In this document: piece after piece, positions 18,862 through 50,397 of the stretch
Layout of the letters: the number at the start of each line of letters is the position of its first letter
Numbering within the stretch: position 1 is the first letter of the stretch
Assembly (NCBI GenBank): GCA_964492775.1
Contig: CAZBLH010000003.1
Coordinates: forward strand, 28,572-92,571
DNA length: 64,000 bases
Reading direction: 5' to 3'
Source: an uncultured Eubacteriales bacterium
Lineage (GTDB): Bacteria > Actinomycetota > Coriobacteriia > Anaerosomatales > PHET01
Notes under the pieces: model-generated
What the model was told of the DNA's origin: nothing
The model's input: the letters and a program-made list of their open reading frames with translations, nothing else
Database searches by the model: none
Made by a program: the position numbers and the translations under genes

Positions 18862-18951
18862 GGTGGGCTCCTGCTCCGAAGGCGCGGTCGGGTTCGCAGG
18901 ATTGTAGCAGTTCAGAACACGCATAGCAGAAGGTCGCGTTAAGATACAGTC

Positions 18952-21363: not shown

Positions 21364-22580
21364 CTACGGCACTCGCGATTGACGGTGGGGCGCCGGTCAG
21401 GACCACTCCCATGCCGAGGTGGCCGTCGCTCGGCGAGTCCGCTGCCGAGGCGGCTGCGGCGGTAGTCCGTTCGGGGCGCCTCAACTATTGGACCGGCGAT
21501 CGCGGCCGCGAGCTGGAGCGTGAGTACGCGAGCTCGCTCGGGCGGAAGCACGCGGTGGCCGTCGCCAACGGTACCGTGGCACTCGAGCTTGCGCTGCGCG
21601 CATTCGGGATCGGACCCGGTGACGAAGTCATCGTGCCAGCACGCACCTTCATCGCGACAGCCGGCGCCGTCGTAGCAGTCGGCGCTGCTCCCGCGATCGC
21701 CGACATCGACACCACGAGCAACAACCTGACCGCCAACACGGTCTCAGCCGTACTCACCGACCGGACGCGCGCCGTCATCCCGGTCCACCTCGGCGGATGG
21801 CCGGTTGACATGGACCCCATCATCGCGCTCGCCGATGAGCGCGGCCTCATCGTGATCGAGGACTGCGCGCAGGCCCACGGTGGCACGTATCGAGGCCGCC
21901 CCATCGGTTCGCTCGGCAGCCATGCTGCCGCGTTCTCGTTCTGCCAGGACAAGATCCTGCCGGTCGGCGACGGTGGCCTGCTGGTGCTCGACGACGATCT
22001 CGCATTCGATCGCGCTTGGAGCTACAAGGATCAGGGCAAGTCGTTCGCGAAGGTGGAGGCGCTCGACTCGGCTCGGCCGGGTGCAAGCTTTCAGTGGCTT
22101 GTCGACAGCTTCGGCTCCAACCTGCGCTTGGACGAGATCTCGGCCGCGCTCGCGCTTGACAGCCTTGCGCACCTGGACGAATGGCACGCGGCTCGAACCC
22201 GGAACGCCACGCGTGTTGCCGAGGGGCTGCGAGGTGTAGCCGGCATCAGCGTGCCCCTGCCCGAGCCCGGCAGCGAGCACGCGTTCTACCGACTCTACGG
22301 CTCAATCGACCCCGAGGCGCTCGCGGACGGATGGGACCGCGACCGGGTGCTTCAGGCAATCATCGCCGAGGGCGTCCCGGTTCAGTACGGCGCCTGCGCC
22401 GAGATCTACCGCGAGGAGGCGTTCGCACGCGCCGGGCTCGCTCCCGCCGAGCGGCTGCCGGGCGCTGCACGCGCACACGAGACCTCGATCGCGTTCTTCG
22501 TGCATCCGACGCTCGGCGATTCGGACATTGACGACACGGTCGCGGCCGTACGCAAGGTCATGGAGGCTGCGACGCGATGA
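21360..22580 (+). CDS. DegT/DnrJ/EryC1 (PglE-like) sugar aminotransferase
   Basis: Homology starts at VTTALAIDGGAPV. GTG at 21360 overlaps the upstream TGA (GTGA). The track ORF from 21225 is over-extended. AHGG.Y.G...GS and SF...K (PLP Lys) are present. Confidence 0.9.
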   Translation: MTTALAIDGGAPVRTTPMPRWPSLGESAAEAAAAVVRSGRLNYWTGDRGRELEREYASSLGRKHAVAVANGTVALELALRAFGIGPGDEVIVPARTFIATAGAVVAVGAAPAIADIDTTSNNLTANTVSAVLTDRTRAVIPVHLGGWPVDMDPIIALADERGLIVIEDCAQAHGGTYRGRPIGSLGSHAAAFSFCQDKILPVGDGGLLVLDDDLAFDRAWSYKDQGKSFAKVEALDSARPGASFQWLVDSFGSNLRLDEISAALALDSLAHLDEWHAARTRNATRVAEGLRGVAGISVPLPEPGSEHAFYRLYGSIDPEALADGWDRDRVLQAIIAEGVPVQYGACAEIYREEAFARAGLAPAERLPGAARAHETSIAFFVHPTLGDSDIDDTVAAVRKVMEAATR

Positions 22581-24445
22581 GCGTACGGGGACTCTTCGAT
22601 CGCGTCCGCGCAACTGGCCGCCTCTGGAACTCGGCGTTGATCGCGCTCGACCTGGCGGTCGTGGCGCTGGCGACCACCATCGCCTACTACGCACGTTTCG
22701 AGGGCCAAGTACCCGCGGAGTACGCGCGCTTCACGACCGATCTCATCGTAATCTCGTGTGTCTTGTACGTGGCCCTGTTCGCCTTGGTCGGCCTGTACCG
22801 TCTCGTGCTGCGCTACGTCGGCGTCGACACCCTGCTCAAGCTTCTCGGCGCGGTCTTCTTGGGTGCCGTCACGATCCTTGCCGCCAATGTCACCGCCTCG
22901 GATGCCCAAGGACTGCGCCCCGTACCTATCGGCGTCATCTTCATACAGGCAGTGCTGGTCTTCCTCGGCGCTGCAGGCACCCGGCTGGCCGCACGCGTAC
23001 TGCGATACCTGCAGGCTACGCGAGCCGGGTTCGGGCATCGCGTGCTGATCATCGGCGCTGGCAGCGCGGGCTCGCTGCTGCTGCGCGAAATCCAGGAGCA
23101 CCCGTCGCTCGAGCTGTTCGTCGTAGGCTTCCTCGACGACGACCGACGACTCATCGGTCAGACGATCAATGGCGTCCCAGTGATTGGGACCACCAGCGAG
23201 CTCAGGGAGATCGCCGAGCGCTCGCGCATCGAGGAGATCCTCGTCGCGCTACCCTCTGCGCCGAAAGAGACTGTGCGCCGCATCCTCAACACAGCCGCAG
23301 ACATCGGCATACAGACGCGCGTCATGCCGCAAATCGTGATTGCTAAGGGCTCGGTGAGCCTGCGCGACCTGCGAAACGTCGACGTGGAGGACCTGCTCGG
23401 CAGGAAGCCGACGCCCATTGATGTGGACCAGGTGCGCAACACGATCGCCGGCCGCGTGGTTGCCGTGACTGGCGCGGCGGGCTCAATCGGCTCAGAGTTG
23501 TGTCGGCAGATCGTGCGGCTCGACCCCGCCAAGCTCCTGCTTCTGGAGATCGATGAGACGCGCCTCTACGAGCTGTGGCTCGAACTCGAGGGCATGGCCC
23601 CCGGGACGAGCGAGATGCGCGTGTGCGACATCAGAGACACCCGGGCGCTTGACGTCGTATTCGCTGATGACGCGCCCTCGGTCGTTCTGCATGCGGCGGC
23701 ATACAAGCACGTCCCCGTCATGGAGCTCGCGCCCGCCGAGGCGATCAAGACCAACGTCGGCGGCACCCGCAACGTAATCGAGGCCTGCGAGCGGTTTGGG
23801 ACCGAGCGCTTCGTGCTCATCTCCACCGACAAGGCGGTTGCGCCCGTCAACATCATGGGGCTGACCAAGTCCCTTGCCGAGCGGATCATGCTGGATGCGA
23901 CGCGGCGCGGTGGACTGAACGCCGTCGCGGTGCGGTTCGGCAACGTGTTGGCCAGCCGTGGCTCGGTCGTGCCGATCTTTGAGGAGCAGCTGCGCCGCGG
24001 GGGGCCGCTCACCGTCACGCATCCTGAGGTCACGCGGTACTTCATGACGATCCCCGAGGCCGCGCGTCTCGTGCTACAAGCCCAGGCCATCGGCTCCAGC
24101 GGAGACATTTTCGTGCTCGAGATGGGCGAGCCGGTCAAGATCGTCGACCTCGCCAGGAAGATGATCGCGCTGTCAGGCGTGCCGGCCGACATCGCGTTCA
24201 TCGGACTGCGCCCGGGAGAGAAGCTGCACGAGGAGCTCGTCAACGAGTGCGAAGAGCTGCTCCCGACCGAGCGGGAGAAGATTCTGCGGGTCAGACACGT
24301 CGACGTTCTCGGCACCGACCTTGGCAGCCGCATCGATGCGCTCGTCGTGGCCGCCGAGCAAGGCAAGGCCATCGAACTGACACCGCTGATCGATCAGCTC
24401 GAACCAGGATTCTACGATCGGGAGGGCGCGGCGTGCCGAGTGTGA
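22577..24445 (+). CDS. Membrane-bound CapD/PglF-like UDP-GlcNAc 4,6-dehydratase
   Basis: 622 aa. N-terminal TM helices are followed by two Rossmann domains (GAGSAG and VTGAAGSIGSEL). YKH..ME and STDKAV are typical of the Polysacc_synt_2 family. Confidence 0.9.
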   Translation: MSVRGLFDRVRATGRLWNSALIALDLAVVALATTIAYYARFEGQVPAEYARFTTDLIVISCVLYVALFALVGLYRLVLRYVGVDTLLKLLGAVFLGAVTILAANVTASDAQGLRPVPIGVIFIQAVLVFLGAAGTRLAARVLRYLQATRAGFGHRVLIIGAGSAGSLLLREIQEHPSLELFVVGFLDDDRRLIGQTINGVPVIGTTSELREIAERSRIEEILVALPSAPKETVRRILNTAADIGIQTRVMPQIVIAKGSVSLRDLRNVDVEDLLGRKPTPIDVDQVRNTIAGRVVAVTGAAGSIGSELCRQIVRLDPAKLLLLEIDETRLYELWLELEGMAPGTSEMRVCDIRDTRALDVVFADDAPSVVLHAAAYKHVPVMELAPAEAIKTNVGGTRNVIEACERFGTERFVLISTDKAVAPVNIMGLTKSLAERIMLDATRRGGLNAVAVRFGNVLASRGSVVPIFEEQLRRGGPLTVTHPEVTRYFMTIPEAARLVLQAQAIGSSGDIFVLEMGEPVKIVDLARKMIALSGVPADIAFIGLRPGEKLHEELVNECEELLPTEREKILRVRHVDVLGTDLGSRIDALVVAAEQGKAIELTPLIDQLEPGFYDREGAACRV

Positions 24446-26274
24446 CGGAGAGCCGGTCAGCCGCATGGGAACGGGCCTCGTGGCTCGCGTTCCTTGCACT
24501 GTTCGCGGTCACGACCTTGGCCGTCGCCAAGGTTCCCTTCCTGCCGGACACGAACCCGGTCGTCGAGCGCTTCACTGGCCCCGAGTTTTCGGCGCTCACC
24601 GTCTTCACGATCATCGCCGCTATGGCATGGTTCATCAGCTGGATTCTCGGCGAGAGAGCCGCGAGGGTCACCCGAGCGCACCTCGCACTTGCCGCCACGT
24701 GTGTGGTCGGCGTCGCCTCGACGGTCATCGCAGACGTACGACCCCTCGCGCTCGTCGGCGAGAGTGGTCGCTACATGGGCCTTGTGACGTGGTTATGCCT
24801 CGCGGTAACGCTCTTACTCGCCACTCAGCTCGTGCGAACGCCGTCGCGTCTTGGGACTCTCAGCCGAGTGGTCATCATCGTCGGCGTGATCCAGGCGGTC
24901 ATCGGCCTCTCGCAGGTTCTCGGCATCGATATCTTGCGCTTCGACTTCCCTGAGCAGTACCGCTGGATGCTCGCACAGGGCGTGGGCACCGTGGGAAACC
25001 CCAACCAGTACTCCACCACACTCATCGTCCCGTTCATCCTGGCTTGTGCCGAGGCACTGTCGGCAGAATCCCGCCGGTGGCGGTACTTGGCCGTGACGGC
25101 CATGGTCGTCACCGGCATCGCTATCGTCGCTTCGGCCACCCGCGGCACATGGATCGGTGCACTGGTCGGGGCAGTCATCGTCGCGATACTCGCAGTGCGA
25201 TGCCGTCTCGCCCGCGGCAGGGCCATCTGGATCGGGGCAGCCGTTCTGGTAGGCACCGTCGCGCTCGGCTCGCTCCTCGCCGACCCCGCCATCCTCGGCA
25301 CGCGCTTCGATCAGGGCGACGCCAACGGAGGCGCAGCCGTCGAGCAACTGTCGAGTGGCAGACTTGCCCTCTGGCGCCAGGGCGTGGATGTCTTCGGCAG
25401 CCATCCAGTGCTCGGAGTCGGACCCGACTCGATTCGCAACGCCTACAAGGCGGCCGGCCATTCCACTGGAATCAGAGGAGTCTTTACTGACGACCCTCAC
25501 AGCCTGCCGCTACTCGTCGCAGTGTCGTTCGGTGCGGTCGGACTTGGGGCTGCCGCTTGGCTCCTCTGGGCCCTCTTGAGCCAGCCGATGATGCGGGTGA
25601 TCCGCGACCCCAGATCCGCGAAGGGCGAGACTTTCGCGCGCATGAACGCGTGGTTTGCCGGCTCTCTCGCCCTGCTCGTCACGTCTCTCGTGTCCGTGAT
25701 CTCGATTCCGATGATGGTCGCGGTCGCGGTTGCCGTTGGCACCGCTTACGCACCGTTCCTGGCGCGCACCGCCGAGCGAAGGGCGCCCGCATGGAGCACT
25801 GTCGTCGCAGGTGTGCTGCTCATTGGCTTCGCGGGACTCTCCATCTGGGCCTCCCTCGTGCCGCTCTACCACAACGCTCGAATCACGGCCGTGCCGCTTG
25901 AAGTGCCTCTCTCGGAAAACGATCTCGCCGTCCTCCACGCAGCTGACAGCGCGCTGCCGTGGCGCTACGAGATGCTTTCGAGGCGCACGAACAAGATCAT
26001 CGAGCAGGCGTCGTTCGAGTACTCGCAAGGGAGTTCCTCGGCTGCCGAAGCGCGTCTCGCACAGCTGCGAGAGCAGTTGGACCAGCGTGTCCAAGTGTAC
26101 CCTGCCGAGTACTTCGCCTGGTACAACCGTGCGAAAGCATGGGCCGACTCGGCAGCAATCACAGGCGACAGGGAGCTCGGCGCGCAGGCCCGCGATATCA
26201 TCGCCGAAGCGCTAGAGCGCTTCCCTGACGACCTCGAGCTCATGGCCTTGTCGATCACCGCGCGCGGGCTATGA
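24433..26274 (+). CDS. Wzy_C (O-antigen ligase-like) polytopic membrane protein with C-terminal helical-repeat (TPR-like) domain
   Basis: In-frame GTG at 24433 (or 24442) overlaps the PglF-like stop. The Wzy_C core is SATRGTWIGALVG...GRLALWRQG...HPVLGVGPDS...DPHSLPLL. The last 150 aa or so are soluble and helical. Confidence 0.8.
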   Translation: MPSVTESRSAAWERASWLAFLALFAVTTLAVAKVPFLPDTNPVVERFTGPEFSALTVFTIIAAMAWFISWILGERAARVTRAHLALAATCVVGVASTVIADVRPLALVGESGRYMGLVTWLCLAVTLLLATQLVRTPSRLGTLSRVVIIVGVIQAVIGLSQVLGIDILRFDFPEQYRWMLAQGVGTVGNPNQYSTTLIVPFILACAEALSAESRRWRYLAVTAMVVTGIAIVASATRGTWIGALVGAVIVAILAVRCRLARGRAIWIGAAVLVGTVALGSLLADPAILGTRFDQGDANGGAAVEQLSSGRLALWRQGVDVFGSHPVLGVGPDSIRNAYKAAGHSTGIRGVFTDDPHSLPLLVAVSFGAVGLGAAAWLLWALLSQPMMRVIRDPRSAKGETFARMNAWFAGSLALLVTSLVSVISIPMMVAVAVAVGTAYAPFLARTAERRAPAWSTVVAGVLLIGFAGLSIWASLVPLYHNARITAVPLEVPLSENDLAVLHAADSALPWRYEMLSRRTNKIIEQASFEYSQGSSSAAEARLAQLREQLDQRVQVYPAEYFAWYNRAKAWADSAAITGDRELGAQARDIIAEALERFPDDLELMALSITARGL

Positions 26275-27382
26275 TCCTCGCAGTGTCTTCGCTGCGCGCG
26301 TACCAGCTGCACTCGGCTTCGGCATAGCGCCGACCGTTCGCCCCCAACTCGGCGGCGAGACCCGGAGAGCCTGCCAGCTGCGCGACCGCCCTGGCGAGCG
26401 CCTCAGGGTCACGCTGGGGCACGATCAGCCCTGCTCGGTTGTCGCGGACGACCTCGGTGAGTCCGGGCATCCCGTCTGTGGCGATCACGGGAGTACCCGA
26501 AGCCATCGATTCGTAGAGCTTGAGTGGCGAGATGCCCGCCTCGGAGAACTCATCGGCTTCTTTGTTCACGAGCGAGACGAGCGCGTGCGCGACAACGCCG
26601 GCGATCTGGTCATAGGGCAGCGTGCCGAGGTAGACGACGCGCGAATCGGTCCGAGCAGCCTCCTCGACCTCGGCCCGCTTCGTTCCCTGCCCCACGATCA
26701 AGAGTGAGACGTCCTGGGGCCACTCAGGCCTCCGAACAGCCTCCAAACTGGTGGATATTCCCTGCCACGGCGCGAACGAGCCAAAGAACACGGCGTAGCG
26801 CCCTGGAACGACGATTCCTTCCGGTATCTCCTCGTCGGGGTTGAAGATCTCCGTGTTCGCGCCGTTGGGGACGATGTCTGCGACGACTCCAGTCTCACGC
26901 AACAGCCACTCGGCAAGCCCGCTCGACCCGGCGATCACGGCGTCCGCTCGGCGGAACTGGGTATAGGTGAGCCACCTGATGAGCGGAGCGAACAGGCGCG
27001 CCGACGGCCACGCGATGAAGAAGTCGTCCACGATACCGTTGCACTCCTGGACGACCGTGACGCCTCTGCGACGAGCGCCCTCCGAAGCCCACCAGGCGAG
27101 CGCATGACCGCGCACGTAGAGCACATCGTACCGGTCCATCGCATCGAGTACCCTGCGCTGGACTCGGGCGAACTCGAGAACCCGCCCGATTGCCCCCGGC
27201 GCCTCCTTGCCCGCGTATGAAGGCTCGAAGAGATCGACTGCTGCGCCCTGTTTTCGAAGGCCGCTGATGATCTCGTGAACGTGTGCGTACGATGCCTGAC
27301 CCGGTGTGGTCGCCTGCAGGCAGAGGTAGGCGATCCTGATTCCTGCGACCGGGGAGGCGTCGATCGGCGCCGGACCAACCAT
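26255..27382 (-). CDS. Glycosyltransferase family 4
   Basis: Starts at MVGPAPIDA (ATG 27382, TGATG junction with the upstream gene). The track ORF is over-extended to 27664. The GT4 E-x7-E region is SPLKLYESMASGTPVIATD. It is a paralog of 44137..45261. Confidence 0.85.
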   Translation of the reverse strand: MVGPAPIDASPVAGIRIAYLCLQATTPGQASYAHVHEIISGLRKQGAAVDLFEPSYAGKEAPGAIGRVLEFARVQRRVLDAMDRYDVLYVRGHALAWWASEGARRRGVTVVQECNGIVDDFFIAWPSARLFAPLIRWLTYTQFRRADAVIAGSSGLAEWLLRETGVVADIVPNGANTEIFNPDEEIPEGIVVPGRYAVFFGSFAPWQGISTSLEAVRRPEWPQDVSLLIVGQGTKRAEVEEAARTDSRVVYLGTLPYDQIAGVVAHALVSLVNKEADEFSEAGISPLKLYESMASGTPVIATDGMPGLTEVVRDNRAGLIVPQRDPEALARAVAQLAGSPGLAAELGANGRRYAEAECSWYARSEDTARIIARAR

Positions 27383-28227
27383 CACACCCTCCCCGTCTGC
27401 GCCATGCGCCGCCTGATCGGGATGCCCCAGCGGTGCCAGCGAAGCGCGAGCTTCAGCCGATACCTGCGAATCGCCTTGCGGGCGAGATCGGTCTCCCGCT
27501 GGTCTAGCATACCCTCGGCGATCAGGTACTCGATGATCTCGATGTGTGAGCGCCAGACCGCTGCGACATCGTCGCTCACCCGGTTGGGCGCGTCTTGGTA
27601 GTAGAGAAAAACAGGCTCCGGCAGGTGATGGTGAGTCGCACCCATCGCCACAGCGCGCATCCACAGATCGATGTCTTCCGAGCGCGATTCCGGTCTTGGG
27701 CCTCCGGTCATCTCAAACACTCCGCGCGTCATCACCGCACTCGTACCGATGAGCAGCCCCGAGAGCATGTCGCCGATGGAGAGTGACGACTCCTCTTGGA
27801 ACACCGGCGCGGTGTAGTAGTAGACACGGCGCCCGTCAGCGAACACCTGGTAGCCGTTGGTGCTCACGATCTCGGCGTCAGGGTGCTTGCCGAAGAACGC
27901 CTCGACCTTCTCGAGGTACTCAGGCGTGAACGCATCATCAGCATCGAGCCGCGCGAAGAGCTCGCCTCGCGCCTGCTGCATCGCCTCGATGCGCGAAGCC
28001 GTCACCCCGCGGTGCGCACACGCGTACACCCGGATGCGTACATCCTGCTCGGCGTAGGAACGCGCCAGCGCGAGCGTGCCGTCGGTGGAGCCGTCGTCGA
28101 TGATGATGTGCTCCCAGTCGTCGAACGCCTGAGCAAGCACGGACTCGATGGCGCGCGAGAGGGTGCGCTCGGCGTTGTACGCCGGCGTGAGGACCGAGAA
28201 ACGTGGTGCCTTCTCCCGCTCGGCCAC
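27382..28227 (-). CDS. Glycosyltransferase family 2
   Basis: FSVLTPAYNAERTL...IIDDGSTDGT...DADD is a GT2 signature. GTG at 28227 is preferred (GGAGGAAGGAG 5 nt upstream, no overlap with the upstream gene). The ORF extends to 28377. Confidence 0.82.
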   Translation of the reverse strand: MAEREKAPRFSVLTPAYNAERTLSRAIESVLAQAFDDWEHIIIDDGSTDGTLALARSYAEQDVRIRVYACAHRGVTASRIEAMQQARGELFARLDADDAFTPEYLEKVEAFFGKHPDAEIVSTNGYQVFADGRRVYYYTAPVFQEESSLSIGDMLSGLLIGTSAVMTRGVFEMTGGPRPESRSEDIDLWMRAVAMGATHHHLPEPVFLYYQDAPNRVSDDVAAVWRSHIEIIEYLIAEGMLDQRETDLARKAIRRYRLKLALRWHRWGIPIRRRMAQTGRV

Positions 28228-28264
28228 CGATGCTCCTTCCTCCGGTTGCTGGCTACGCGCTTCC

Positions 28265-30235
28265 TCACCGGAAGACTCGGGCGAGACGCCGAGCCGCACT
28301 CGTGGCATATCGCCTGAGAACACGGGCAGCTGCGCGCACATCTCTCGCCTTAGGCACCAGGATGTCAGCATATCCAAAACCGCTTTCGCGTTTCATCAGG
28401 TACACGATGACCGCCGAATAGATGCAGTACGTCGTGCTCGACGCCAGTGCAGCACCCATGATGCCGAATCGCGGGATCACTATGAGGTTCGCTACGGCGT
28501 TCAGCACGACCATCACCGCCGAGGTGCGCCAGTAGATCACCTCACGCGAGAACAGGTAGGAGCTCGGCACCTCGGAGATGCTCATCGCGGCCACTCCGGG
28601 CAGGAGCGCCAGAAGGACCGGACCCGCCTCAGCGAACGTCGGTCCGAACACGACAGGCACGAGCATGGGCCCGAAAAGCGCAAAGACCGCGACGATGCCG
28701 AGCACGAGCAGCACCGTGAGTCTCGAGACGCCCGCCGACAGCGCCGAGCCCTCGTCGCGACCCACCTGCGATGCGCGCGCGAAGAGTGCCGAGCCCAGAA
28801 CGACAGGAATGTAGCGCGCCACCTCGGCAAGGCTCGTCGAGACCGAGTACACGCCCACGGCGGCCTGCCCGGCAAGCCACCCGAGGATCAGCATGTCCTG
28901 GCGAAGGTGCAGGTAGCCCACGAGCGACACGAAATACGACTTCGCTGAGTAGCCCACCATCGCGCGCATCGCGCCGAGGTCGAGCCGCCAGCCGGTCATC
29001 ATCCGACCGCGCTCAAGCAAGAGAAGGACGGCCGATGCAACCGCCTGCCCGAGCACGCCGAGCGAAACCATGAACAGCGCCGAAAGCAACCCGGCTTGCC
29101 ACAGGACGAACGCGCCCATGAGCACGAGAGTGACCGAGCTGATGCCCGCTATCGCCTGCGGACGCAGGCCCGAGAGTCCGATCGCAATGGCACCGAGCCA
29201 GGCGAAGAGCGTTGTCGTCACGAACAGCACCGCAGCCACGAGCGCCATGGCCAGCGAGTACGGCGGATCGGGCGCAAGAGGTCCGGTGATGACGAGCAGG
29301 CAGGCGATGGTTGCCGCGAGGCCCGTGACGCCGGTGAGCAGGACGCTGTTCGCCACAGCAGAGCCCGGGGTGACCTCTCTGCGCGCCACGAAGTAGACGT
29401 TCGATGTGGACAGCCCGAGCCCGAGCACGACGACGAGCACGCCCACGATCTGCTGAACGAGCGCGTACCCACCCTTGCCGACCGGCCCCAGCGCCCGTGC
29501 GAGAATGACGCCGATGAGGAAGTTCACGGCTACTGTGACGAACTTTGCGGCCAGGCCCCACGCAGTGGAAGCACCGAGTCGATGTCGACGAGGGCGCGCC
29601 GTCTGAGCGAGCGCCGCCACAGGAATCTCCGCCGGATCGAGCTCGTCCATGGTGACGAACGCCGCGCCTTGCGCAATGAGCTCGTCCAGGATTCCCGGCA
29701 GTGCCTCCGCTGTGACCTCAGGCCAACTGTGCAGCAGCACGATCAGGCTACCGCTGCCCGCGGCAGCGCGTTCGGAGTGCGCCGCGACCACGCGGCTGGC
29801 GAGCTGATCGGCCGTCGAACCCTGCTCCCAGTCGAGGCTGTCGAGGTGCCAGCCGATCTGCCGGTAGCCTGCTGCCTCGATGTGCGACAGTACCTGCGAA
29901 TCGAATGCTCCCGAGTTCTGCGGGCAGCGGAAGTACGGGCGCGGCGACTGGCCCGTTGCGCGCTCAATCGCCTCCTCGGCGCGTTTGACCTCGCTCCGAA
30001 GCTCCGCTTCTGTGATCTGGCCGGGAAGCGCGTGCGAGTAGGTGTGATTGCCGACGCGATGGCCATCGCGCGTCAGTCGCGCTGCAAGCTCGGGGTTCGC
30101 CTCGGCCCACTCGCCCTGGAGGAAGAAGGTGGCCACGACGCCACGCTCGGCGAGTACCTCGATGATCCGCTCCGCCACCGCAGGGTCATGCCCGTGCGGT
30201 GCAGGCTCGACATCGAAGGTGAGCGCTACCTTCAT
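28265..30235 (-). CDS. Fusion protein: N-terminal polysaccharide deacetylase (NodB/CE4) + C-terminal Wzx-type (MOP) flippase
   Basis: 656 aa. Residues 1 to about 200 are ALTFDVEP...GNHTYSH...LLHSW (CE4 motifs), with no signal peptide. Residues from about 215 to the end have about 12 TM helices with polysaccharide-biosynthesis-protein (Wzx) similarity. This part is clearly paralogous to 47962..49347. Confidence 0.85.
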   Translation of the reverse strand: MKVALTFDVEPAPHGHDPAVAERIIEVLAERGVVATFFLQGEWAEANPELAARLTRDGHRVGNHTYSHALPGQITEAELRSEVKRAEEAIERATGQSPRPYFRCPQNSGAFDSQVLSHIEAAGYRQIGWHLDSLDWEQGSTADQLASRVVAAHSERAAAGSGSLIVLLHSWPEVTAEALPGILDELIAQGAAFVTMDELDPAEIPVAALAQTARPRRHRLGASTAWGLAAKFVTVAVNFLIGVILARALGPVGKGGYALVQQIVGVLVVVLGLGLSTSNVYFVARREVTPGSAVANSVLLTGVTGLAATIACLLVITGPLAPDPPYSLAMALVAAVLFVTTTLFAWLGAIAIGLSGLRPQAIAGISSVTLVLMGAFVLWQAGLLSALFMVSLGVLGQAVASAVLLLLERGRMMTGWRLDLGAMRAMVGYSAKSYFVSLVGYLHLRQDMLILGWLAGQAAVGVYSVSTSLAEVARYIPVVLGSALFARASQVGRDEGSALSAGVSRLTVLLVLGIVAVFALFGPMLVPVVFGPTFAEAGPVLLALLPGVAAMSISEVPSSYLFSREVIYWRTSAVMVVLNAVANLIVIPRFGIMGAALASSTTYCIYSAVIVYLMKRESGFGYADILVPKARDVRAAARVLRRYATSAARRLARVFR

Positions 30236-31158
30236 GACCGGCCGCCTCTGCGCATGGTGAGCGACGCAACCCGAGCGGCGACCGGCCGCAAGGCATTTGA
30301 GCTCACATGCATGGCTTCAGAAACCCACTCGCCGGCTCGCTCGCCAAGTACCCGGGCCACGGCGTTCTTGACCGCGGTGCGCCGCAGGTAGATCCACTCG
30401 TCCTGCCGAGCGCGCGCGATCGCCGCGCGCGCCGCCACTGCCTGTTCCGGCGAGAAGGTCCCGTCGTCGATCAGGCGCTGGTAGATGGCGAGCCGCGACT
30501 CGAACAGCTTCACGACATCGGCCGTCATCTGACACTCGCTCGCGTAGAACACCGCAAGCATCTGCGGCGTGTAGCGGTGCCGAGCGCCGGACGCGAGCGC
30601 CCGCAACCAGAAATCGACGTCCTCACAGTAGACGTCGGGCCGGATGCCGCCGACCCGCTCGAACAGCTCCCGCGAGAAGACGGCGATCGTGAAGATGTGC
30701 GTGGCCTGAAGCATCTCCTCGAGCGTGAACGAGCGCTCGACCTGGTAGAACGCGCCAGGCCTCGCGAGCCGGCGCGTGCCATCAGGGTTAACGTGCCATC
30801 CGTTGCAGCTGTAGATGTCGTAACCCGGCCTCGCCCGGATGAACTCGTCCATCCGGGCGAGGTATTCGGGCAGCAGTTCGTCGTCGGCGTCGAACCGGAC
30901 GACGTACTCGCCGCTGGACACGCGCACGGCGGTGTCCCGGGCGGCTCCGCACCCGGCGTTTTCCTGGCGCACGAGCCGGATGCGGCCGTCACGCTCGGCG
31001 TACGCCGACACAACCTCGGCGGTAGCGTCGACCGAGCCGTCGTCGGTGACGACGAGCTCCCAGTCCTCGAAGGTCTGCGCGAGGACGCTGTCGAGCGCAC
31101 GCGGGAGCGTCGCGGCCGCATTGAATGCGGGCATCGCTATCGAGAAGCGCGGGCTCAC
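30232..31158 (-). CDS. Glycosyltransferase family 2
   Basis: 308 aa. FSIAMPAFNAA...VVTDDGSVD...FDADD. 4-nt overlaps at both ends. Confidence 0.85.
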   Translation of the reverse strand: MSPRFSIAMPAFNAAATLPRALDSVLAQTFEDWELVVTDDGSVDATAEVVSAYAERDGRIRLVRQENAGCGAARDTAVRVSSGEYVVRFDADDELLPEYLARMDEFIRARPGYDIYSCNGWHVNPDGTRRLARPGAFYQVERSFTLEEMLQATHIFTIAVFSRELFERVGGIRPDVYCEDVDFWLRALASGARHRYTPQMLAVFYASECQMTADVVKLFESRLAIYQRLIDDGTFSPEQAVAARAAIARARQDEWIYLRRTAVKNAVARVLGERAGEWVSEAMHVSSNALRPVAARVASLTMRRGGRS

Positions 31159-32144
31159 GGGCGCCGCCCTTTGCGGCGAGCTCGCTCGGCAAGCGCGATC
31201 CTAAGCGGTTGCACGATGCCTTTGACCCGGTTCGCAGCCCGGATCACCGAATCCCCGGCGCGCCTGCCGAACACGCGGTAGACGCCGGCCTTGAAACGCC
31301 TGGCCTGGGCATCCGTGTACTCGGCGACGGTCGTGCCGTCCTCCTCGAGCTGACGAATGCGCTCACGGAACCGCTCGATCGACTTGGTGGCAAGCGCCTT
31401 CTCGCGCTCGCCGAACGTCCCGTCGGCAGAGAGTTCCTCGAGAATGTCGATGTAGGACAGGAACGACGGAATCGGGTCCTCATTCATCCGGCCGGACAGC
31501 TCCATCGTGTACAGGTAGATGTGCTCGGGCACGTAGCGGTGCCTCGCGCCAGCCGCGAGCGCGCGCAGCCACAGGTCGTAGTCCTCGCAGCGCACGTGAG
31601 GCCGAAAGCCACCCAGGCGCTCGAGAGTGCTACGACGGATCGTGGCCGCGCCACCAAAGATCCAGCAGTCCTCGATGAGATCGTCGACCGTGAGTGAGAG
31701 CGAGCGCAGATACTTCGGGTCGTTCAGAGCCTCTCGCCGGGTGCCGTCTGGGTAGACCTTGTAGCCCGTCGCCGAGTAGATGTCGTAGCCCGGCTCCGCA
31801 TCGATTGCGCTCGAGAGCACCGAGAGCGCGTCAGGAGTCAGGGCGTCGTCAGCGTCAATCTTCGTGACGAACTCCCCGCAGGCGACGGCCGCTCCCGCCT
31901 GGCGCGCTCCCGCACATCCGGCGTTTCGCTGCGTGAGCACGCTCACTCGCTGGTCGGTGCGCTCCCACCCGCGCGCGATCGACAACGTGTCGTCCGCCGA
32001 GCCGTCGTCGACCACGATGAGCTCGAAGTCCCGGCAGCTCTGCGACAACACGCTTTCGACTGCCCGCGCAAGCGTCCCTGCGGCGTTGTACGCGGGCATT
32101 ACCAGCGAGAAGCGCGGCGAGGAGCCGTGGTCGGATGCGGTCAC
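31155..32144 (-). CDS. Glycosyltransferase family 2
   Basis: 329 aa. FSLVMPAYNAAGTL...IVVDDGSADDT...IDADD. It is a paralog of the neighbouring GT2. Confidence 0.85.
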   Translation of the reverse strand: MTASDHGSSPRFSLVMPAYNAAGTLARAVESVLSQSCRDFELIVVDDGSADDTLSIARGWERTDQRVSVLTQRNAGCAGARQAGAAVACGEFVTKIDADDALTPDALSVLSSAIDAEPGYDIYSATGYKVYPDGTRREALNDPKYLRSLSLTVDDLIEDCWIFGGAATIRRSTLERLGGFRPHVRCEDYDLWLRALAAGARHRYVPEHIYLYTMELSGRMNEDPIPSFLSYIDILEELSADGTFGEREKALATKSIERFRERIRQLEEDGTTVAEYTDAQARRFKAGVYRVFGRRAGDSVIRAANRVKGIVQPLRIALAERARRKGRRP

Positions 32145-33991
32145 TGCGCCAGCATCTCCTCGGCACGCGTGATGTACGCCTCGGTGGCCGGATACGTGGC
32201 GCCAAGAGCCCGAGCACGAGCGATGCGCTCCGGCAGCGAGGCCGTATCACCCGTCACAATTGCGAGGTGCAGCTGCTCGGCGGCGAGGGAGGGCAAATCC
32301 GGGACAGCCTCCTCGGCGCGCTCGAGCAGGCCGCGCTCCCACGAGAAGTCGGTCTCGCCGAGCGACTCACCCTGACCCATGCCGAACGCCGCGAACTGCA
32401 CCAGGTTAGGCGCGAAGCCGGTGATGTATCCGGGAGCCGCATCCACGGAGGCACGCGCGGCGGCGAGTTCGTCCGAGGTCGCGGCGCCAATGAGCGCGAG
32501 ATCGATCCGGCGGCGCTCGTTCAGCGGCTCACCGGGGATGATACGAGCCGCACGCTCGACGCGCGCGACGTCGTCGGCAAGGCTTCCCTGGCCGGCGATC
32601 TGGCCGGCATCAAGCCCGAAGCCGCGCCACACGCCGTAGCCCCCGAGTGCGACCGCTAACACGAGCGCCACCCAGCGAAGCGCTCCAGATGCACCGAGCT
32701 CACGCTCACCCGCCGAAGAATGCGCTGGAGCAGCGATGGCAAACCCGCCGACGACGACGCCCAGCAGCCCTGAGGCAAAATGCACCGGTGTGACCATGAG
32801 CGAGAACAGGTACGCGGCGAAGCCGACCGCGAGACCGAGCCGCACGGTGTTCGCAGGTGAGTGAGGCGCCGGCGCAACCAACTCAGCCACTCGGCGAGTC
32901 CAGATCACGAGCAGTGCGACGAGAGCGGCCATGCCGAGCAACCCGAGGCGCGTGAGCGCCTCCCAGAGCAGCGAGTGCGGCGAGGGGGCGCTGAAGGCGG
33001 TCGGATCGCTACCGGCCCCCGCGATGTAGGCGAACACGCCGGGGTCGTACCGGTCGACCGCGAAGAACCGGTACCCTGCCGGGCCGAACCCGAGCACAGG
33101 CCGCTCGGCGACCATGCGCTGTGCGCCCTCCCAAAGGTACAGGCGCGTAGCCACTGTCTGCTCGGCGCCCGCGCCCTTCTCGGCATCGATGAGCCACGAC
33201 CCCAGGGCCGGGACCTGCACCAGCACGATCACCACGCACGCGAGTGCCAGGACCGCCGCCGCTGAGACGCGTAGCGCGCGGTGCCACGAAGTCGGCACGG
33301 GCAGCAGCTGCGGCCCCGCGACGCACGTGAGAAGCAACCCCATGCCGAGCATGAAGATCGCCGAGAGCCCCGCCGCCGCGTAGGCGAGGCCGAGCGCCAT
33401 GCCGAGTGCCAGGAGGTCGTAGGCGAGCGGGCGCTCCGAGGTCCTCGCCAGGCCGAGCGACACGAAGATGAGCGGCGCGAGGGCGGGTACCGAGTAGGCC
33501 GGGCTGCCGAAGGTGGTCACGAAGCCCTGGGTCCAGCGCCAGACGACCATCACCGCGATCAGCGCCGCGCCGGCGTACACGGTCCAGCGCATCGCTTCGC
33601 GCGTGTGCTCGCCCAGCGGGAAGCATGCAGCTACGAGAAAGACCGCCGGGTACGCGAGCCATAGCACGCCCGGCATCTCCCCGTAGAGATCGAACAGCGC
33701 CTGCTGCACAGGAAAGACGTTGCTCGCGAGCGAGAAGGCAGCCACCGCGAGCAGCCCTGCGATCCCAGCAAGCACGGAGCGCCTCGGCAGGCGCAGACGC
33801 GGTGCGAGCCACGCGGCAGCCGCGATCCACACCCCTGCTGTCACGAGATGCAGCGCCTGGGCGGCAGGCTGCGCCGGCAGGGTCACGACAAGCCATGCGC
33901 CAGGCGACAGGAACGCCGCGAGGACGAGCAGGGTGACGAGCCGGGGATCGAGACGCGGGCCGGAGTTGGACGGAGCTTTAGCCATGTTCAC
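32141..33991 (-). CDS. Wzy_C (O-antigen ligase-like) polytopic membrane protein with soluble C-terminal domain
   Basis: 616 aa. The Wzy_C core is RLYLWEGAQRMVAERPVLGFGPAGY...PSPHSLLWEALTRLGLLG. It has more than 10 TM helices. Confidence 0.78.
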   Translation of the reverse strand: MNMAKAPSNSGPRLDPRLVTLLVLAAFLSPGAWLVVTLPAQPAAQALHLVTAGVWIAAAAWLAPRLRLPRRSVLAGIAGLLAVAAFSLASNVFPVQQALFDLYGEMPGVLWLAYPAVFLVAACFPLGEHTREAMRWTVYAGAALIAVMVVWRWTQGFVTTFGSPAYSVPALAPLIFVSLGLARTSERPLAYDLLALGMALGLAYAAAGLSAIFMLGMGLLLTCVAGPQLLPVPTSWHRALRVSAAAVLALACVVIVLVQVPALGSWLIDAEKGAGAEQTVATRLYLWEGAQRMVAERPVLGFGPAGYRFFAVDRYDPGVFAYIAGAGSDPTAFSAPSPHSLLWEALTRLGLLGMAALVALLVIWTRRVAELVAPAPHSPANTVRLGLAVGFAAYLFSLMVTPVHFASGLLGVVVGGFAIAAPAHSSAGERELGASGALRWVALVLAVALGGYGVWRGFGLDAGQIAGQGSLADDVARVERAARIIPGEPLNERRRIDLALIGAATSDELAAARASVDAAPGYITGFAPNLVQFAAFGMGQGESLGETDFSWERGLLERAEEAVPDLPSLAAEQLHLAIVTGDTASLPERIARARALGATYPATEAYITRAEEMLAQ

Positions 33992-34069
33992 ATTCTACCG
34001 CACGAACAGGCGTTTTCGGGTATCGAGTGGTAACATGAGAAGGTTAGACTGGCCGGCTAGGAGTCGCCC

Positions 34070-35977
34070 GTGTCCGCTGCCCATAAGACGTCCTGGATCG
34101 CGCTCCTGTGTGTGATGGTCGCCGTCCCCACTGTCGTAGGCACTCTGCCGTTCGGGTACCAGTTCATGCTAAGCCCGTTCTCTTCCCCTGCAGTGCTTAT
34201 CCTCGGAGTTGGAGCCGCAGTATCCGTCATCGCCTGGGCCGTCGCGTGCCTTCGCGGAGAACTCGGATACCGACACCACTCGCTTATGCCCGTGGTGGGC
34301 ATCTTCGCCCTGATGGCGGGCCTCTCCACCCTCTTCTCGCTGGACCGCGACTACGCGTTCTTCGGCGACGGCGACGATCTGAACGGCCTCGCCGTGTACG
34401 TGCTCTGTGCTCTGCTTGTGCCCGTCACGGCCAGCCTCTGTTCGGGCTCACGGAGGATCCGGTCGCTCACGACCGCGGTGATCGCTTCGGGTGTAGTGGT
34501 GGGAGCTATCGCACTTCTCCAGCAGCTGTTCGGCGCTGACATCTTCCGCGAGATAGCCGCGGATCAAGTCGCCGAACTCGGCTGGCTGATATCGCAGGGC
34601 GCCTCGACTCTCGGCAACCCCGACTTCACCGGCACCTTCCTCGTGGCGCCGGCAGTGCTCGCGATCGCCCGCGCAATCGCATCCGATACGCGCGATCCGG
34701 CCGCCGCAGCCGTCGAGATCGCCCCTGCCGCCGTCATCTCGGGGGCGCTCGTCCTGACGCTGACCCGCGGGGCATGGCTCGGCCTCGCAGCGGGCGTTGG
34801 AGTGCTGCTCGCGATCACCATCGTCCGCAGCGGCAAGTCGGCTGCGCACCTGCGGCGCGTGGCCATCGCCGGCGCCATCACCCTTGCTGCGGTACTCGCC
34901 CTCGGGGGCTCCGAGATCCTCCGGCGCTTCCGAGAGCTCGCCGAGGGCGGTCTCGCAGGGCTCGCCGGACGCACGATCATCTGGTCCGAGACGCTGCGCA
35001 TGATCGCCGAGCGTCCCCTTTTGGGCACCGGCCCTGCTGCGTTCAGGCTCGGCTGGTACCAGGCACGCGAGGTTGCGGGCCTGATCGTCTCGGCTGACGC
35101 CTTCGCCACCGACGCGCACAACTACCCGCTCATGCTCGCGGCGACCATGGGCATCCCCGCCGCCGTCGCGCTCCTGTACGTGTGGATCCACGCGCTGGTG
35201 GACTCGAGGCGCCTCGTTTGGGGCGGCGAGGCCAAGGGGTCGATCGACTATCAGGGCTGGTGGGCCGCATCGCTCGCGCTTGCGGTCGCGCTTCTGACCG
35301 GCGTCGCCACCACGCCGGTGGTGCTACTGGTTTTCGTGGGGATTGGCGTGCTCCTGTCGCCTCTCGCGTCGCCTCCGGCCTCCTCCCCCGGCAGGCAAGC
35401 CGCGATTTCGTACCCGGCGGCCGCGATCGCGCTCGCGGCGCTTGTCGCGACCGGCGCGCAGGGGTGGGCGCATGTCGCCGCGCGCTCGGCGCTGAACGAG
35501 TCTCCGCAGGCGCTGTCCCAAGTGGCCGCATCGGTTCCGTGGAACGGCCACCTCGGGCTTCTCGCCGCGCAGCTGGAGGCCGCCGCGGCGCAGCAGGCCT
35601 TCGTCACCTCCGAAGACGGGCGCGACACCCTCGCGCGAGTCTTCGGACCACCCGCCGAGCGGCATCCGAACGATCCCGAGTTCGCGGCCTCATGGGCTGT
35701 CCAGCTTTTCATCGCCGGGGAAACGTTGGGCGATCGGGACTTGTTCACTGAGGGCCTCGAGGTCTCCGAGCGGGCGGTGAGGCTCTACCCGAACTCGCTC
35801 CGGCTGCGTACCGACCGCGCGCGGGCGTTGATCGCGTCTGGGCAGCCCGAGAAGGCGCTTGAGGAACTCCAGCGGTTCAGGGAGCTTGACGCTAGCGCGC
35901 CCGATGTCGGTGTGGTGCGCGGTTTGATCGACGATGCTGAGGCGGCCGCCTCCGGGGAGACGACCACGACGCCCTAG
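34070..35977 (+). CDS. Wzy_C (O-antigen ligase-like) polytopic membrane protein with C-terminal TPR-like domain
   Basis: 635 aa. LTRGAWLGL...GRTIIWSETLRMIAERPLLGTGPAAF...DAHNYPLML. The C-terminal 170 aa or so are helical repeats. It is divergent from 32141..33991 across a 78-bp spacer. Confidence 0.78.
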   Translation: MSAAHKTSWIALLCVMVAVPTVVGTLPFGYQFMLSPFSSPAVLILGVGAAVSVIAWAVACLRGELGYRHHSLMPVVGIFALMAGLSTLFSLDRDYAFFGDGDDLNGLAVYVLCALLVPVTASLCSGSRRIRSLTTAVIASGVVVGAIALLQQLFGADIFREIAADQVAELGWLISQGASTLGNPDFTGTFLVAPAVLAIARAIASDTRDPAAAAVEIAPAAVISGALVLTLTRGAWLGLAAGVGVLLAITIVRSGKSAAHLRRVAIAGAITLAAVLALGGSEILRRFRELAEGGLAGLAGRTIIWSETLRMIAERPLLGTGPAAFRLGWYQAREVAGLIVSADAFATDAHNYPLMLAATMGIPAAVALLYVWIHALVDSRRLVWGGEAKGSIDYQGWWAASLALAVALLTGVATTPVVLLVFVGIGVLLSPLASPPASSPGRQAAISYPAAAIALAALVATGAQGWAHVAARSALNESPQALSQVAASVPWNGHLGLLAAQLEAAAAQQAFVTSEDGRDTLARVFGPPAERHPNDPEFAASWAVQLFIAGETLGDRDLFTEGLEVSERAVRLYPNSLRLRTDRARALIASGQPEKALEELQRFRELDASAPDVGVVRGLIDDAEAAASGETTTTP

Positions 35978-46651: not shown

Positions 46652-46795
46652 CGATTGTGAGTCCTTCGTTGCGAGTTTGCGGCCTCAGGCTGCGCCGCCT
46701 CAGGGACTGTTGTCAAGGTCACCCGCGGAGCAGGCCGGCCACGGAGCACGCGGGTGATACGATGCACGGCAGACTATGAGCGACCGAACGGGACC

Positions 46796-50246: not shown

Positions 50247-50397
50247 CACGGACTTCGGGAACGCGCGGATGTAGGCGCGACGGGCAACCGCGAACCAACG
50301 CTCGGGCACTGCCTTCCTGATCAGACCCTGAACTCGAACAAGCACGTCCGCGATCCGCTCCCGAGACTCAACGAACCGCAGGCTGCGGCCCTTCAGC

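Follow-up and report, generated by a model that had tools for sequence, protein, structure and literature searches.

Among the enzymes built around a Wzy_C domain, PglL, the general O-oligosaccharyltransferase (O-OTase) of Neisseria meningitidis, and PglS represent a class of ~520–620 amino acids (aa; 550–620 for PglL) with a C-terminal periplasmic domain, proposed in PglS to read internal sequons, whereas WaaL, TacL, TfpO and TfpM measure ~400–470 aa (PMC9829042). PglL and WsfB, an S-layer O-OTase of the Gram-positive bacterium Paenibacillus alvei, join Wzy_C to C-terminal tetratricopeptide repeats (TPR), whereas WsaB of Geobacillus stearothermophilus has a separate TPR protein, WsaA, encoded next to it (PMC2943079). 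Genes for O-OTases usually adjoin the gene of their target (PMC3643930). On the side of potential targets, the OmcE and OmcS filaments of Geobacter carry surface glycans visible by cryo-electron microscopy, and the OmcE clusters encode two large multihaem cytochromes, one or more beta-propellers and a small secreted cytochrome, followed by glycosyltransferase (GT) genes of the GT2, GT4 and GT39 types and TPR genes, with sugar-modifying enzymes, methyltransferases and exporters also encoded downstream; NHL proteins are known companions of such multihaem cytochromes. Here, we explored a 64-kb window (the whole stretch of DNA that was analysed, positions 28,572 to 92,571 of contig CAZBLH010000003.1) from an uncultured bacterium of the Coriobacteriia. 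The window, of ~65% G+C, is a combined island of glycan synthesis and extracellular electron transfer, in which a multihaem-cytochrome operon lies inside a glycan-synthesis island at 18.9–60.4 kb and four genes encode Wzy_C proteins, labelled W1–W4. Our analysis shows that the three long forms, W1–W3, are Wzy_C enzymes of the ligase type whose conserved TPR-like domain faces outward, and that their genes are coupled to the cytochrome module and to genes for a sugar of the N,N′-diacetylbacillosamine (diNAcBac) type. We tentatively read W1–W3 as PglL/WsfB-like enzymes that transfer glycans en bloc, probably acting on the cytochrome module. The four Wzy_C genes are as follows.

W1: 24433–26274, plus strand; 613 aa, 13 predicted transmembrane (TM) segments and a helical C-terminal domain of ~130 aa.
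W2: 32141–33991, minus strand; 614–616 aa, long form, from a separate, deep-branching "W2-type" clade.
W3: 34070–35977, plus strand; 635 aa, long-form Wzy_C-TPR protein.
W4: 45311–46651, minus strand; 446 aa, short-form Wzy_C protein without a C-terminal domain.

These four open reading frames (ORFs), first picked out in a sequence-only reading of the window, all exceed the gathering score of Pfam Wzy_C (PF04932; 31.7 bits), with 66.1 bits for W1, 34.0 for W2, 61.4 for W3 and 43.5 for W4 (E = 4e-18 to 3e-8), the match of W4 being partial (profile positions 2–102 of 149). NCBIfam offered no specific family for them, only sub-threshold matches to IctB and HpsL. W1, W2 and W3 are identical to public predicted proteins (P0036, P0051 and P0001, respectively) from a 105.7-kb NCBI/Logan contig; for W2, the public call gives 614 aa counted from the ATG at 33985, which is likely the start, so that the divergent arrangement of W2 and W3 described in the sequence-only reading stands with a gap of 84 bp instead of 78 bp. 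W1 and W3 are paralogues (27–28% identity over the full length, E = 1.6e-29), W2 aligns to W3 across the C-terminal half, and W4 is unrelated to the others outside the Wzy_C core. In phylogenetic analysis, the long forms split into two deep clades, W2-type and W3-type, with W1, whose family is confined to a close clade, forming a derived branch within the latter. The W3-type family is large: at E ≤ 1e-30 it comprises 1,992 cluster representatives, and of the 150 best, most are matched over the full length and measure 610–750 aa.

W1–W3 are built alike: a WaaL-like core is followed by a 13th TM helix and then, on the extracytoplasmic side, by a C-terminal domain of helical repeats. AlphaFold2 models of W3 (predicted local distance difference test score, pLDDT, 83) and W2 (pLDDT 86.6) each contain 13 TM helices followed by a repeat domain of 8–9 helices, which in W3 occupies residues 479–627. 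When these models were compared with the PDB using Foldseek, WaaL (7tpg, 7tpg_B) was the sole significant match of both (E = 4e-6 for W3, 2.5e-5 for W2), covering the TM core with a TM-score of ~0.5 on the target. The loop charges (positive-inside), together with the 13 helices, indicate that the N-terminus faces inward and that the catalytic loop lies outside, on the same side as the C-terminal TPR domain. In the families of W3 (0.47 vs 0.53) and W2 (0.61 vs 0.58), conservation of the external domain matches that of the catalytic core. The sequence-only reading had credited three of the proteins with soluble C-terminal extensions of 150–200 residues, clearly TPR-like in W1 and W3 and, by implication, not so in W2. 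The extensions are real in W1, W2 and W3 but closer to 130–170 residues, and their description needs revision: W3 is the only protein with significant Pfam TPR matches (TPR_9, 42.1 bits against a cutoff of 35; TPR_14, 25.8 against 23.5), whereas for W1 "clearly" was an overstatement, its TPR_14 match being sub-threshold (E = 0.013) and its TPR-likeness resting on the full-length homology to W3. Conversely, W2 has no Pfam TPR match, yet the nine helices at the C-terminus of its model resemble TPR proteins such as Tom70 and OGT.

By sequence, the nearest solved relative of the W1 and W3 families is an O-OTase. A core profile built from W1 and W3 homologues and compared with all PDB sequences retrieved a single match, 9rmk_A, annotated "Oligosaccharyltransferase" (E = 6.2e-11, 45 bits), which spans only ~200 core residues at very low overall identity; the full W3 profile (20 sequences) matched the same entry at E = 1.5e-5. 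The numbering of 9rmk_A (Q178, N180, R224, R298, P313, G316, G318, H349) is that of the N. meningitidis PglL residues described in PMC3643930, where the PglL triad R224/R298/H349 is equated with the WaaL triad R215/R288/H338. This triad aligns with R233/R301/H350 of W3 and R237/R310/H356 of W1, and 9rmk_A residues R224, R298, P313, G316, G318 and H349 all align to positions invariant in the joint W1 and W3 family: R233, R301, P316, G319, G321 and H350 of W3 are invariant in 20 homologues and remain so when the W1 homologues are added, the corresponding W1 motifs being TR237G, GR310, HPVLGVGP and DPH356. The W2 family shows invariant R281, H337 and PxxGxG (R283 and H339 in ORF numbering). Accordingly, residues equivalent to P313/G316/G318, which are conserved in PglLs, are present in W1–W3 and absent in W4. 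WaaL (7tpg) was not matched by sequence from any profile (W1+W3, W2 or core-only), the comparison with WaaL holding at the level of the W2 and W3 folds. An 11-sequence core-only profile (A2) retrieved nothing from the PDB, a matter of sensitivity, as the larger and W1+W3 profiles did match, and single-sequence searches with W1–W4 against PDB sequences gave nothing meaningful.

The long forms resemble PglL and PglS in the Wzy_C core, the Arg/Arg/His triad (in W1 and W3), the P-x-x-G-x-G motif and, at 613–635 aa with a C-terminal extracytoplasmic domain, in overall build, W4 (446 aa) falling outside the class. They differ from PglL in that the PglL_A domain was not detected, in that PglL_B positions Q178/N180 align to an invariant N-P-[DN] motif in the W1 and W3 family, in the presence of three paralogues instead of one, in a monoderm host without a periplasm, and in having cytochromes rather than pilins as neighbours. 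With WaaL they share the fold of the TM core, seen in W3 and W2, and the placement of the Arg residues that bind undecaprenyl diphosphate (Und-PP) and of the catalytic His on the outer face; WaaL, however, has 12 TM helices, ~400–420 aa and no external domain, only W4 is of comparable size, and the lipid A-core acceptor of WaaL should not exist in this host. Compared by described architecture, WsfB and WsaB are alike in their Gram-positive hosts, in the Wzy_C and TPR layout and in being encoded in a glycan locus, with two stand-alone TPR genes of the window (43211–44101 and 57008–57718) as counterparts of WsaA, but no S-layer gene is adjacent here, the conserved neighbours being cytochromes.

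The host is probably a monoderm, Gram-positive member of the Coriobacteriia: the closest relatives of the W1–W3 genes all come from uncultured Coriobacteriia/Actinomycetota metagenome-assembled genomes (best species-representative match, 46% identity), and cultured members of the Anaerosomatales, a related order, are iron reducers with Gram-positive walls and 17–18 multihaem cytochromes (PMC9686372). The absence of lipopolysaccharide, assumed in the sequence-only reading, is therefore plausible, its support being indirect and coming from these relatives, the Anaerosomatales walls and a window protein with three CWB2 domains. The accompanying premise that Wzy_C proteins are out of place in such an organism is mistaken, given the monoderm precedents of TacL, WsaB/WsfB and Gram-positive Wzy/capsule polymerases.

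The second line of evidence is the conserved neighbourhood of the long-form genes. Downstream of W3 and on the opposite strand lies the cytochrome operon, with the following genes.

cyt1: 35981–37252, minus strand; cytochrome with 11 CxxCH motifs and an N-terminal TM anchor.
cyt2: 37249–38205, minus strand; membrane-anchored cytochrome with 12 CxxCH motifs and a NapC/NirT-like N-terminus.
cytS: 38386–39645/39750, minus strand; secreted cytochrome of ~6 haems, with signal peptide and haem motifs.
cyt3: 39982–41733, minus strand; protein whose C-terminal half is a paralogue of cytS.
NHL: 41939–43210, minus strand; TM-anchored NHL beta-propeller protein (Pfam NHL).
TPR: 43211–44101, minus strand; TM-anchored stand-alone TPR protein (Pfam TPR), together with NHL the conserved head of the operon.

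W3 is divergent from W2 and convergent with cyt1, only 3 bp separating the W3 and cyt1 stops; a scan for promoters and terminators around W2, W3 and cyt1 found nothing exceeding shuffled sequences. The products of cyt1 and cyt2 match Pfam Cytochrome_C7, Cytochrom_c3_2 and Cytochrom_NNT.

We compared this arrangement with ~25 related loci (L-numbers), in which the Wzy_C proteins are only 26–57% identical to those of the window. In these relatives, long-form Wzy_C-TPR genes adjoin an operon for a TPR protein, an NHL protein, a small secreted cytochrome and two 11–12-haem cytochromes, a linkage seen in L003/L045, L004, L006, L007, L008, L041–L044, L046, L047, L049–L051 and L105 and kept through at least six different gene orders or orientations; homologues of cyt1 and cyt2 adjoin Wzy_C-TPR genes in at least 15 loci, and those of the NHL and TPR proteins are 33–47% identical in L004, L006, L007, L008, L044, L046, L047 and L049–L051. 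The close relatives (L002, L041 and L042; 46–57% identity for W1–W3) retain W1, then GT4, GT2, a deacetylase-Wzx fusion, two GT2 genes and W2, and then W3, with W2 conserved at 54–57% in full synteny; L041 and L042 run on into cyt1, and L002 ends directly after W3. In distant Coriobacteriia (L004, L006, L007, L008, L043, L044, L046, L047 and L049–L051), where W3-type proteins are 30–34% and W2-type proteins 38–39% identical, the TPR-NHL-cytS-cyt2-cyt1 set is accompanied by a long-form Wzy_C gene or two of them, and PglF/E/D/C and GT4 genes are usually adjacent as well. The cytochrome operons of L046 and L047 end with a W2-type gene. In L046, this gene begins 9 bp past the cyt1 stop and is the sole Wzy_C gene seen in 22 kb; in L047, the start overlaps the stop of cyt1, and the contig carries a W3-type gene as well, ~15 kb upstream. 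Beyond this class, a single strand of the Chloroflexota locus L017 encodes a Wzy_C-TPR protein (707 aa), a TPR protein, an NHL protein and cytochromes of 6 and 7 haems, without glycan genes; L010 (labelled Eubacteriales) resembles it, and a remote family member, P0150, has a NapC/c7-type cytochrome gene 75 bp downstream. Short homologues from low-GC genomes (21–28% identity) never have cytochromes nearby; those of Firmicutes (Caloramator, Sedimentibacter) are orphans amid housekeeping genes and uninformative on function. In two of the distant loci, a protein of 511–552 aa with a spermine/spermidine-synthase domain (PF01564) is encoded between cyt1 and the Wzy_C-TPR gene (L043 8324–9982; L044 8440–9975), and no counterpart was seen in the window.

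Orthologues of cytS occur in all related clusters (L004, L006–L008, L010, L017, L046, L047, L049–L051), Chloroflexota included. The window holds three cytS-type copies (38386–39645, 54590–55885 and 39982–41139, all on the minus strand) that are 70–72% identical with two variable loops, and the family (~6 haems, 350–430 aa) is characterized by a signal peptide (MKKTL...), invariant haem motifs, five invariant extra histidines and, in most orthologues, a conserved C-terminal G-[LV]-G-x-x-[YF] tail. These secreted cytochromes, proposed as acceptors in the sequence-only reading, gain strong support as candidates from the conserved gene neighbourhood, although the Ser/Thr-rich variable loops invoked there turned out to be only moderately Ser/Thr-rich. 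The other acceptor proposed, the RCC1-Big5-3xCWB2 protein (57781–60411), is the sole wall-binding protein in the window; it is encoded 12–22 kb away, has no homologue in any related locus and, as a cognate acceptor, is the weaker candidate, so that this suggestion finds no support. Adjoining the third cytS copy, upstream of the RCC1-Big5-3xCWB2 gene, are genes on the minus strand for a C_GCAxxG_C_C-like redox protein ending in a CxxCH haem motif (55949–56599) and for the second stand-alone TPR protein, with at least 3 clear TPR repeats (57008–57718).

Genes for the synthesis of a glycan surround the Wzy_C genes on both strands.

GT4a: 18952–20115, plus strand; glycosyltransferase (Pfam Glycos_transf_1, Glyco_transf_4) that opens the plus-strand sugar operon.
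PglC-like: 20090–20749, plus strand; small single-domain polyprenyl-phosphate sugar-phosphate transferase (Bac_transf, 221 bits; 219 aa).
PglD-like: 20746–21363, plus strand; sugar N-acetyltransferase (Pfam PglD_N, Hexapep).
PglE-like: 21225–22580, plus strand; DegT/PglE-like sugar aminotransferase (DegT_DnrJ_EryC1, 288 bits, match from residue 69).
PglF-like: 22577–24445, plus strand; PglF/CapD-like membrane-anchored UDP-N-acetylhexosamine 4,6-dehydratase (Polysacc_synt_2, 353 bits, and CoA_binding_3).
GT4b: 26255–27664, minus strand; glycosyltransferase (Pfam), final gene of the W2 operon.
GT2a: 27382–28377, minus strand; glycosyltransferase (Pfam Glycos_transf_2), 62–71% identical in L002, L041 and L042.
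Deacetylase-Wzx: 28265–30235, minus strand; fusion of an N-terminal NodB-type deacetylase with a Wzx/MOP flippase (Polysacc_deac_1 with Polysacc_synt/Polysacc_synt_3; 656 aa).
GT2b and GT2c: 30232–31158 and 31155–32144, minus strand; glycosyltransferases (Pfam), 59–67% identical in L002, L041 and L042.
GT4c: 44137–45261, minus strand; glycosyltransferase (Pfam) between W4 and the TPR gene, 44–48% identical in L006 and L044.
GT4d: 46754–47920, plus strand; glycosyltransferase (Pfam/NCBIfam).
Wzx: 47962–49347, minus strand; Wzx-type flippase (Pfam/NCBIfam).
Radical SAM: 49347–50474, minus strand; radical SAM protein (Pfam/NCBIfam).

The plus-strand operon runs GT4, PglC-like, PglD-like, DegT aminotransferase, PglF-like and W1, the PglF-like stop overlapping the W1 start by 13 bp. 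On the minus strand, from 46651 to 26255, the order is W4, GT4, TPR, NHL, cyt3, cytS, cyt2, cyt1, then, beyond W3 on the opposite strand, W2, GT2, GT2, deacetylase-Wzx, GT2 and GT4. GT4a is kept at 56–64% identity beside homologues of PglC/D/E/F in L006, L007, L009, L044 and L047, and PglF homologues in related loci are 64–72% identical. The PglD-like protein belongs with the NeuD/PglB/VioB family (NCBIfam TIGR03570, 212.5 bits against a cutoff of 160.8), the NCBIfam matches of the PglC-like protein are to the C-terminal catalytic part of EPS_sugtrans/WcaJ, and the PglE-like protein is below all NCBIfam equivalog cutoffs. As listed, the PglE-like ORF overlaps PglD, its true start probably lying ~140–200 bp downstream, and that of GT4b is probably internal (relatives measure ~385–393 aa and are 57–62% identical in L002, L041 and L042). 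The deacetylase-Wzx fusion is kept at 63–64% identity in L002, L041 and L042 (642 aa in L041 and L042); we know of no described example of such a fusion. The radical SAM protein, whose best NCBIfam match is a weak one to a radical SAM/SPASM "metalloenzyme maturase", co-occurs with the cluster in L005, L006, L047 and L049 (41–55% identity). The island is inserted beside leuB/leuD (aconitase-family) and LPG_synthase_TM genes (window 17261–19026 and 16265–17227), which also flank the cluster in distant Coriobacteriia (L044, L046, L047 and L104); given these shared flanking genes, its chromosomal position is ancient within the lineage.

With its PglF/E/D/C-type genes for a diNAcBac-like sugar and its GT4 genes, the locus resembles the pgl systems of Neisseria and Campylobacter, and a comparable pathway can be proposed. 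Judging from their domains, the PglF-, PglE- and PglD-like enzymes would make a UDP-2,4-diamino-2,4,6-trideoxyhexose-type sugar, similar to diNAcBac, which the PglC-like transferase would load onto undecaprenyl phosphate; the GT4 and GT2 enzymes would elongate the lipid-linked glycan, and the Wzx-type flippases would carry it to the outer face of the membrane. W1–W3 would then move the finished glycan en bloc from undecaprenyl diphosphate to acceptors that, by analogy with PglL, PglS and WsfB, would be proteins recruited by the external TPR domain. The most likely acceptors would be the secreted ~6-haem family and the membrane-anchored 11–12-haem cytochromes, possibly along with the NHL and TPR partners, and the three paralogues may serve different glycans or different acceptors. 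Protein O-glycosylation, which the sequence-only reading had raised for at least some of the four proteins, is thus the best-supported reading of the three long forms, and we infer it from the PglL profile match, the size, the C-terminal domain and the WsfB-like layout; for W4, a polymerase or short ligase fits better. As a whole, the assignment of W1–W3 as PglL/WsfB-like transferases acting on the cytochrome module falls, in our estimate, slightly short of an even chance.

Several observations weigh against this assignment. The PglL-specific domain PglL_A (PF15864; the H400/E404/P406 region) gave no match at E ≤ 0.01 in W1–W4; the cytochromes, with 12–19% Ser/Thr, are not strikingly rich in these residues; polysaccharide export, too, makes use of TPR domains as scaffolds; and the identity of the acceptors is inferred from synteny only. 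That synteny is partly a matter of vertical inheritance, because the loci come mostly from one class and share the conserved leu/aconitase site (L044, L046, L047 and L104). One family member, P0218 (L106), belongs to a cluster devoted to glycans, in which a class A penicillin-binding protein is also encoded, and has no cytochrome gene within 10 kb, and W2-type and W3-type genes co-occur on many contigs, as a polymerase-plus-ligase pair would. Furthermore, in the W2 family the first triad Arg is found in just 17 of the 21 members, and the W2 profile matched neither PglL nor WaaL in the PDB.

The features of W2 would fit a division of labour within a single protein-glycosylation pathway, with W2-type enzymes as polymerases and only the W3/W1-type acting as oligosaccharyltransferases. 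In addition to the non-invariant first triad Arg of its family and the lack of a PglL or WaaL sequence match, W2 scores lowest of the four against Wzy_C (34 bits) and is the first gene of the GT and flippase operon, and W2-type and W3-type proteins are two deep clades represented on the same contigs. Nevertheless, W2 retains the catalytic His, the GR..W arginine, PxxGxG, the 13th TM helix and the conserved TPR-like external domain, and its conservation at 54–57% in full synteny is at odds with the usual strain variability of polymerases. Also, its orthologue in L046, the sole Wzy_C protein in 22 kb, is encoded directly after cyt1, and the one in L047 overlaps the cyt1 stop; that W2 is simply "the polymerase", as head of a GT operon, is weakened by these two orthologues, which end cytochrome operons. 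We consider such a division of labour improbable.

A more radical alternative is that all four proteins are ordinary Wzy polymerases for four surface polysaccharides, the cytochrome neighbourhood being an accident of the lineage. The Wzy_C domain is indeed found in some polymerases, genes for GTs and flippases abound in the island, and the synteny comes largely from one class and a conserved chromosomal site. However, only two flippases and one phosphoglycosyl transferase would have to serve four polymerases, no co-polymerase is encoded in the window, the linkage to cytochromes survives at least six rearrangements and recurs in Chloroflexota, in known Wzy enzymes there is no role for the conserved external TPR domain, and the closest solved sequence relative is an O-OTase. 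Four polymerases are therefore highly improbable in our judgement. Of the features of a Wzy pathway, the window has Wzx flippases and, among the scanned ORFs, no chain-length regulator.

A serious rival, which we rate as somewhat unlikely, is that the products are not glycoproteins but an envelope glycopolymer, that is, a secondary wall polysaccharide, a teichoic-acid-like polymer or a lipoglycan. Under this scenario, W4 or a W2-type enzyme would polymerise Und-PP-linked repeats and the long forms would ligate the polymer to a glycolipid or envelope acceptor, in the manner of TacL, the polymer matrix holding the multihaem cytochromes, and CWB2 proteins, in the thick wall and so accounting for the linkage to cytochromes. 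TacL, the lipoteichoic acid ligase of the Gram-positive pneumococcus, is a Wzy_C-domain enzyme that acts on Und-PP glycans; the first sugar of these, at the reducing end of the polymer, is a 2-acetamido-4-amino-2,4,6-trideoxyhexose (AATGal) made by PglF/E-like enzymes, and the pathway, with its teichoic-acid repeat-unit polymerase, has more than one Wzy_C-type enzyme (PMC5727136). Moreover, anchoring of Geobacter cytochromes requires an extracellular polysaccharide (Rollefson 2011, as cited in PMC5585712), and the complement of the window, namely, two Wzx flippases, nine GTs and two deacetylases, exceeds what a short protein-linked glycan needs. The co-occurrence of W2-type and W3-type genes as in a polymerase/ligase pair, the CWB2 wall-binding protein encoded nearby and the L106 member beside a penicillin-binding protein point in the same direction. 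On the other hand, TacL (397 aa, without TPR or a link to cytochromes), WaaL and typical Wzy proteins measure ~400–450 aa and lack an external TPR domain, a size that W4 could fit and that the 613–635 aa of W1–W3 do not. Attachment to the wall in the TacL pathway involves a LytR-CpsA-Psr (LCP) ligase, whereas no LCP ligase, Wzz/polysaccharide co-polymerase or bacterial tyrosine kinase (CpsC/D-type) was found among the scanned ORFs of the 64-kb window. Finally, the Wzy_C-TPR gene of L017 is embedded in a cytochrome operon without glycan genes, the W1+W3 profile matches PglL and not WaaL, and relatives do not keep the RCC1-CWB2 gene near the cluster.

W4 stands apart from the long forms and is most likely a strain-specific repeat-unit polymerase or a short ligase, given its small size, its lack of a TPR domain and its poor conservation, no homologue having been found in the ~25 related loci. 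W1–W3, kept at 46–57% identity with synteny, are unlike polymerases in this respect. Its candidate triad is R227 or R244, R329 and H360, and the PxxGxG motif is absent. Other short or mid-sized Wzy_C genes, unrelated to W4, fill variable slots beside the conserved long forms in L041 (7803–9062, 419 aa), L042 (3349–5064, 571 aa) and L045 (12024–13559, 511 aa), which is the pattern expected of strain-specific polymerases.

A parallel with the OmcE clusters of Geobacter is apparent in the shared layout of cytochromes, propeller, small secreted cytochrome and glycosylation genes. Geobacter is a diderm, however, with a beta-barrel component in these clusters, and OmcE has 4 haems in 232 aa compared with ~6 haems in 350–430 aa for cytS. 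In the OmcE/OmcS literature that we found, no enzyme glycosylating the filaments is identified; GT39 is reported, and Wzy_C-TPR proteins are not mentioned. Genes for PMT_2/GT39-like (GT-C) enzymes also occur in the islands of two relatives (L045 15114–16523; L046 20405–21848), and these enzymes are an alternative candidate for cytochrome glycosylation. Members of the cytS family may act as terminal reductases or form the subunits of a filament. The family profile showed weak similarity in the PDB to a reaction-centre cytochrome (8.7e-6), to 6i5b_A (6.9e-5), which we take to be the Thermincola surface reductase OcwA, and to OmcE (7tfs, 7.1e-5), this similarity being marginal and driven by haem motifs, and a single cytS sequence retrieved nothing. 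Given the conserved tail and the faint OmcE/OcwA similarity, cytS could be the subunit of a polymerising "nanowire" or a wall-spanning protein. In its most specific form, to which we attach considerable doubt, the proposal would be that Wzy_C-TPR proteins are the dedicated oligosaccharyltransferases of a conserved extracellular multihaem-cytochrome machinery of monoderms (Coriobacteriia and some Chloroflexota), consisting of the TPR protein, the NHL propeller, two membrane-anchored cytochromes and the secreted ~6-haem cytochrome, with the latter coated by a glycan primed with a diNAcBac-like sugar. Such a role would name the enzyme class for the glycosylation of cytochrome filaments.

Our literature search yielded no publication that connects O-antigen-ligase-like genes to multihaem cytochrome clusters. 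Enzymes of this type are known; what appears to be new is that they are triplicated and that, in monoderms, their coupling to an electron-transfer module is conserved. PglL and PglS are used in the production of conjugate vaccines, and, should the long forms prove to be O-OTases, the ~2,000 sequence clusters of candidate monoderm enzymes would be of possible interest for glycoengineering. The placement and stabilisation of multihaem cytochromes in thick Gram-positive walls are poorly understood. Transfer of glycans by W1–W3 to the cytochrome module would provide a testable enzyme-substrate pair for cytochrome glycosylation and would extend en bloc O-glycosylation of the PglL/WsfB type to the Actinomycetota, linking it to mineral respiration, whereas, if a glycopolymer is the product, the island would define the wall polymer by which these subsurface bacteria hold their electron conduits in place.

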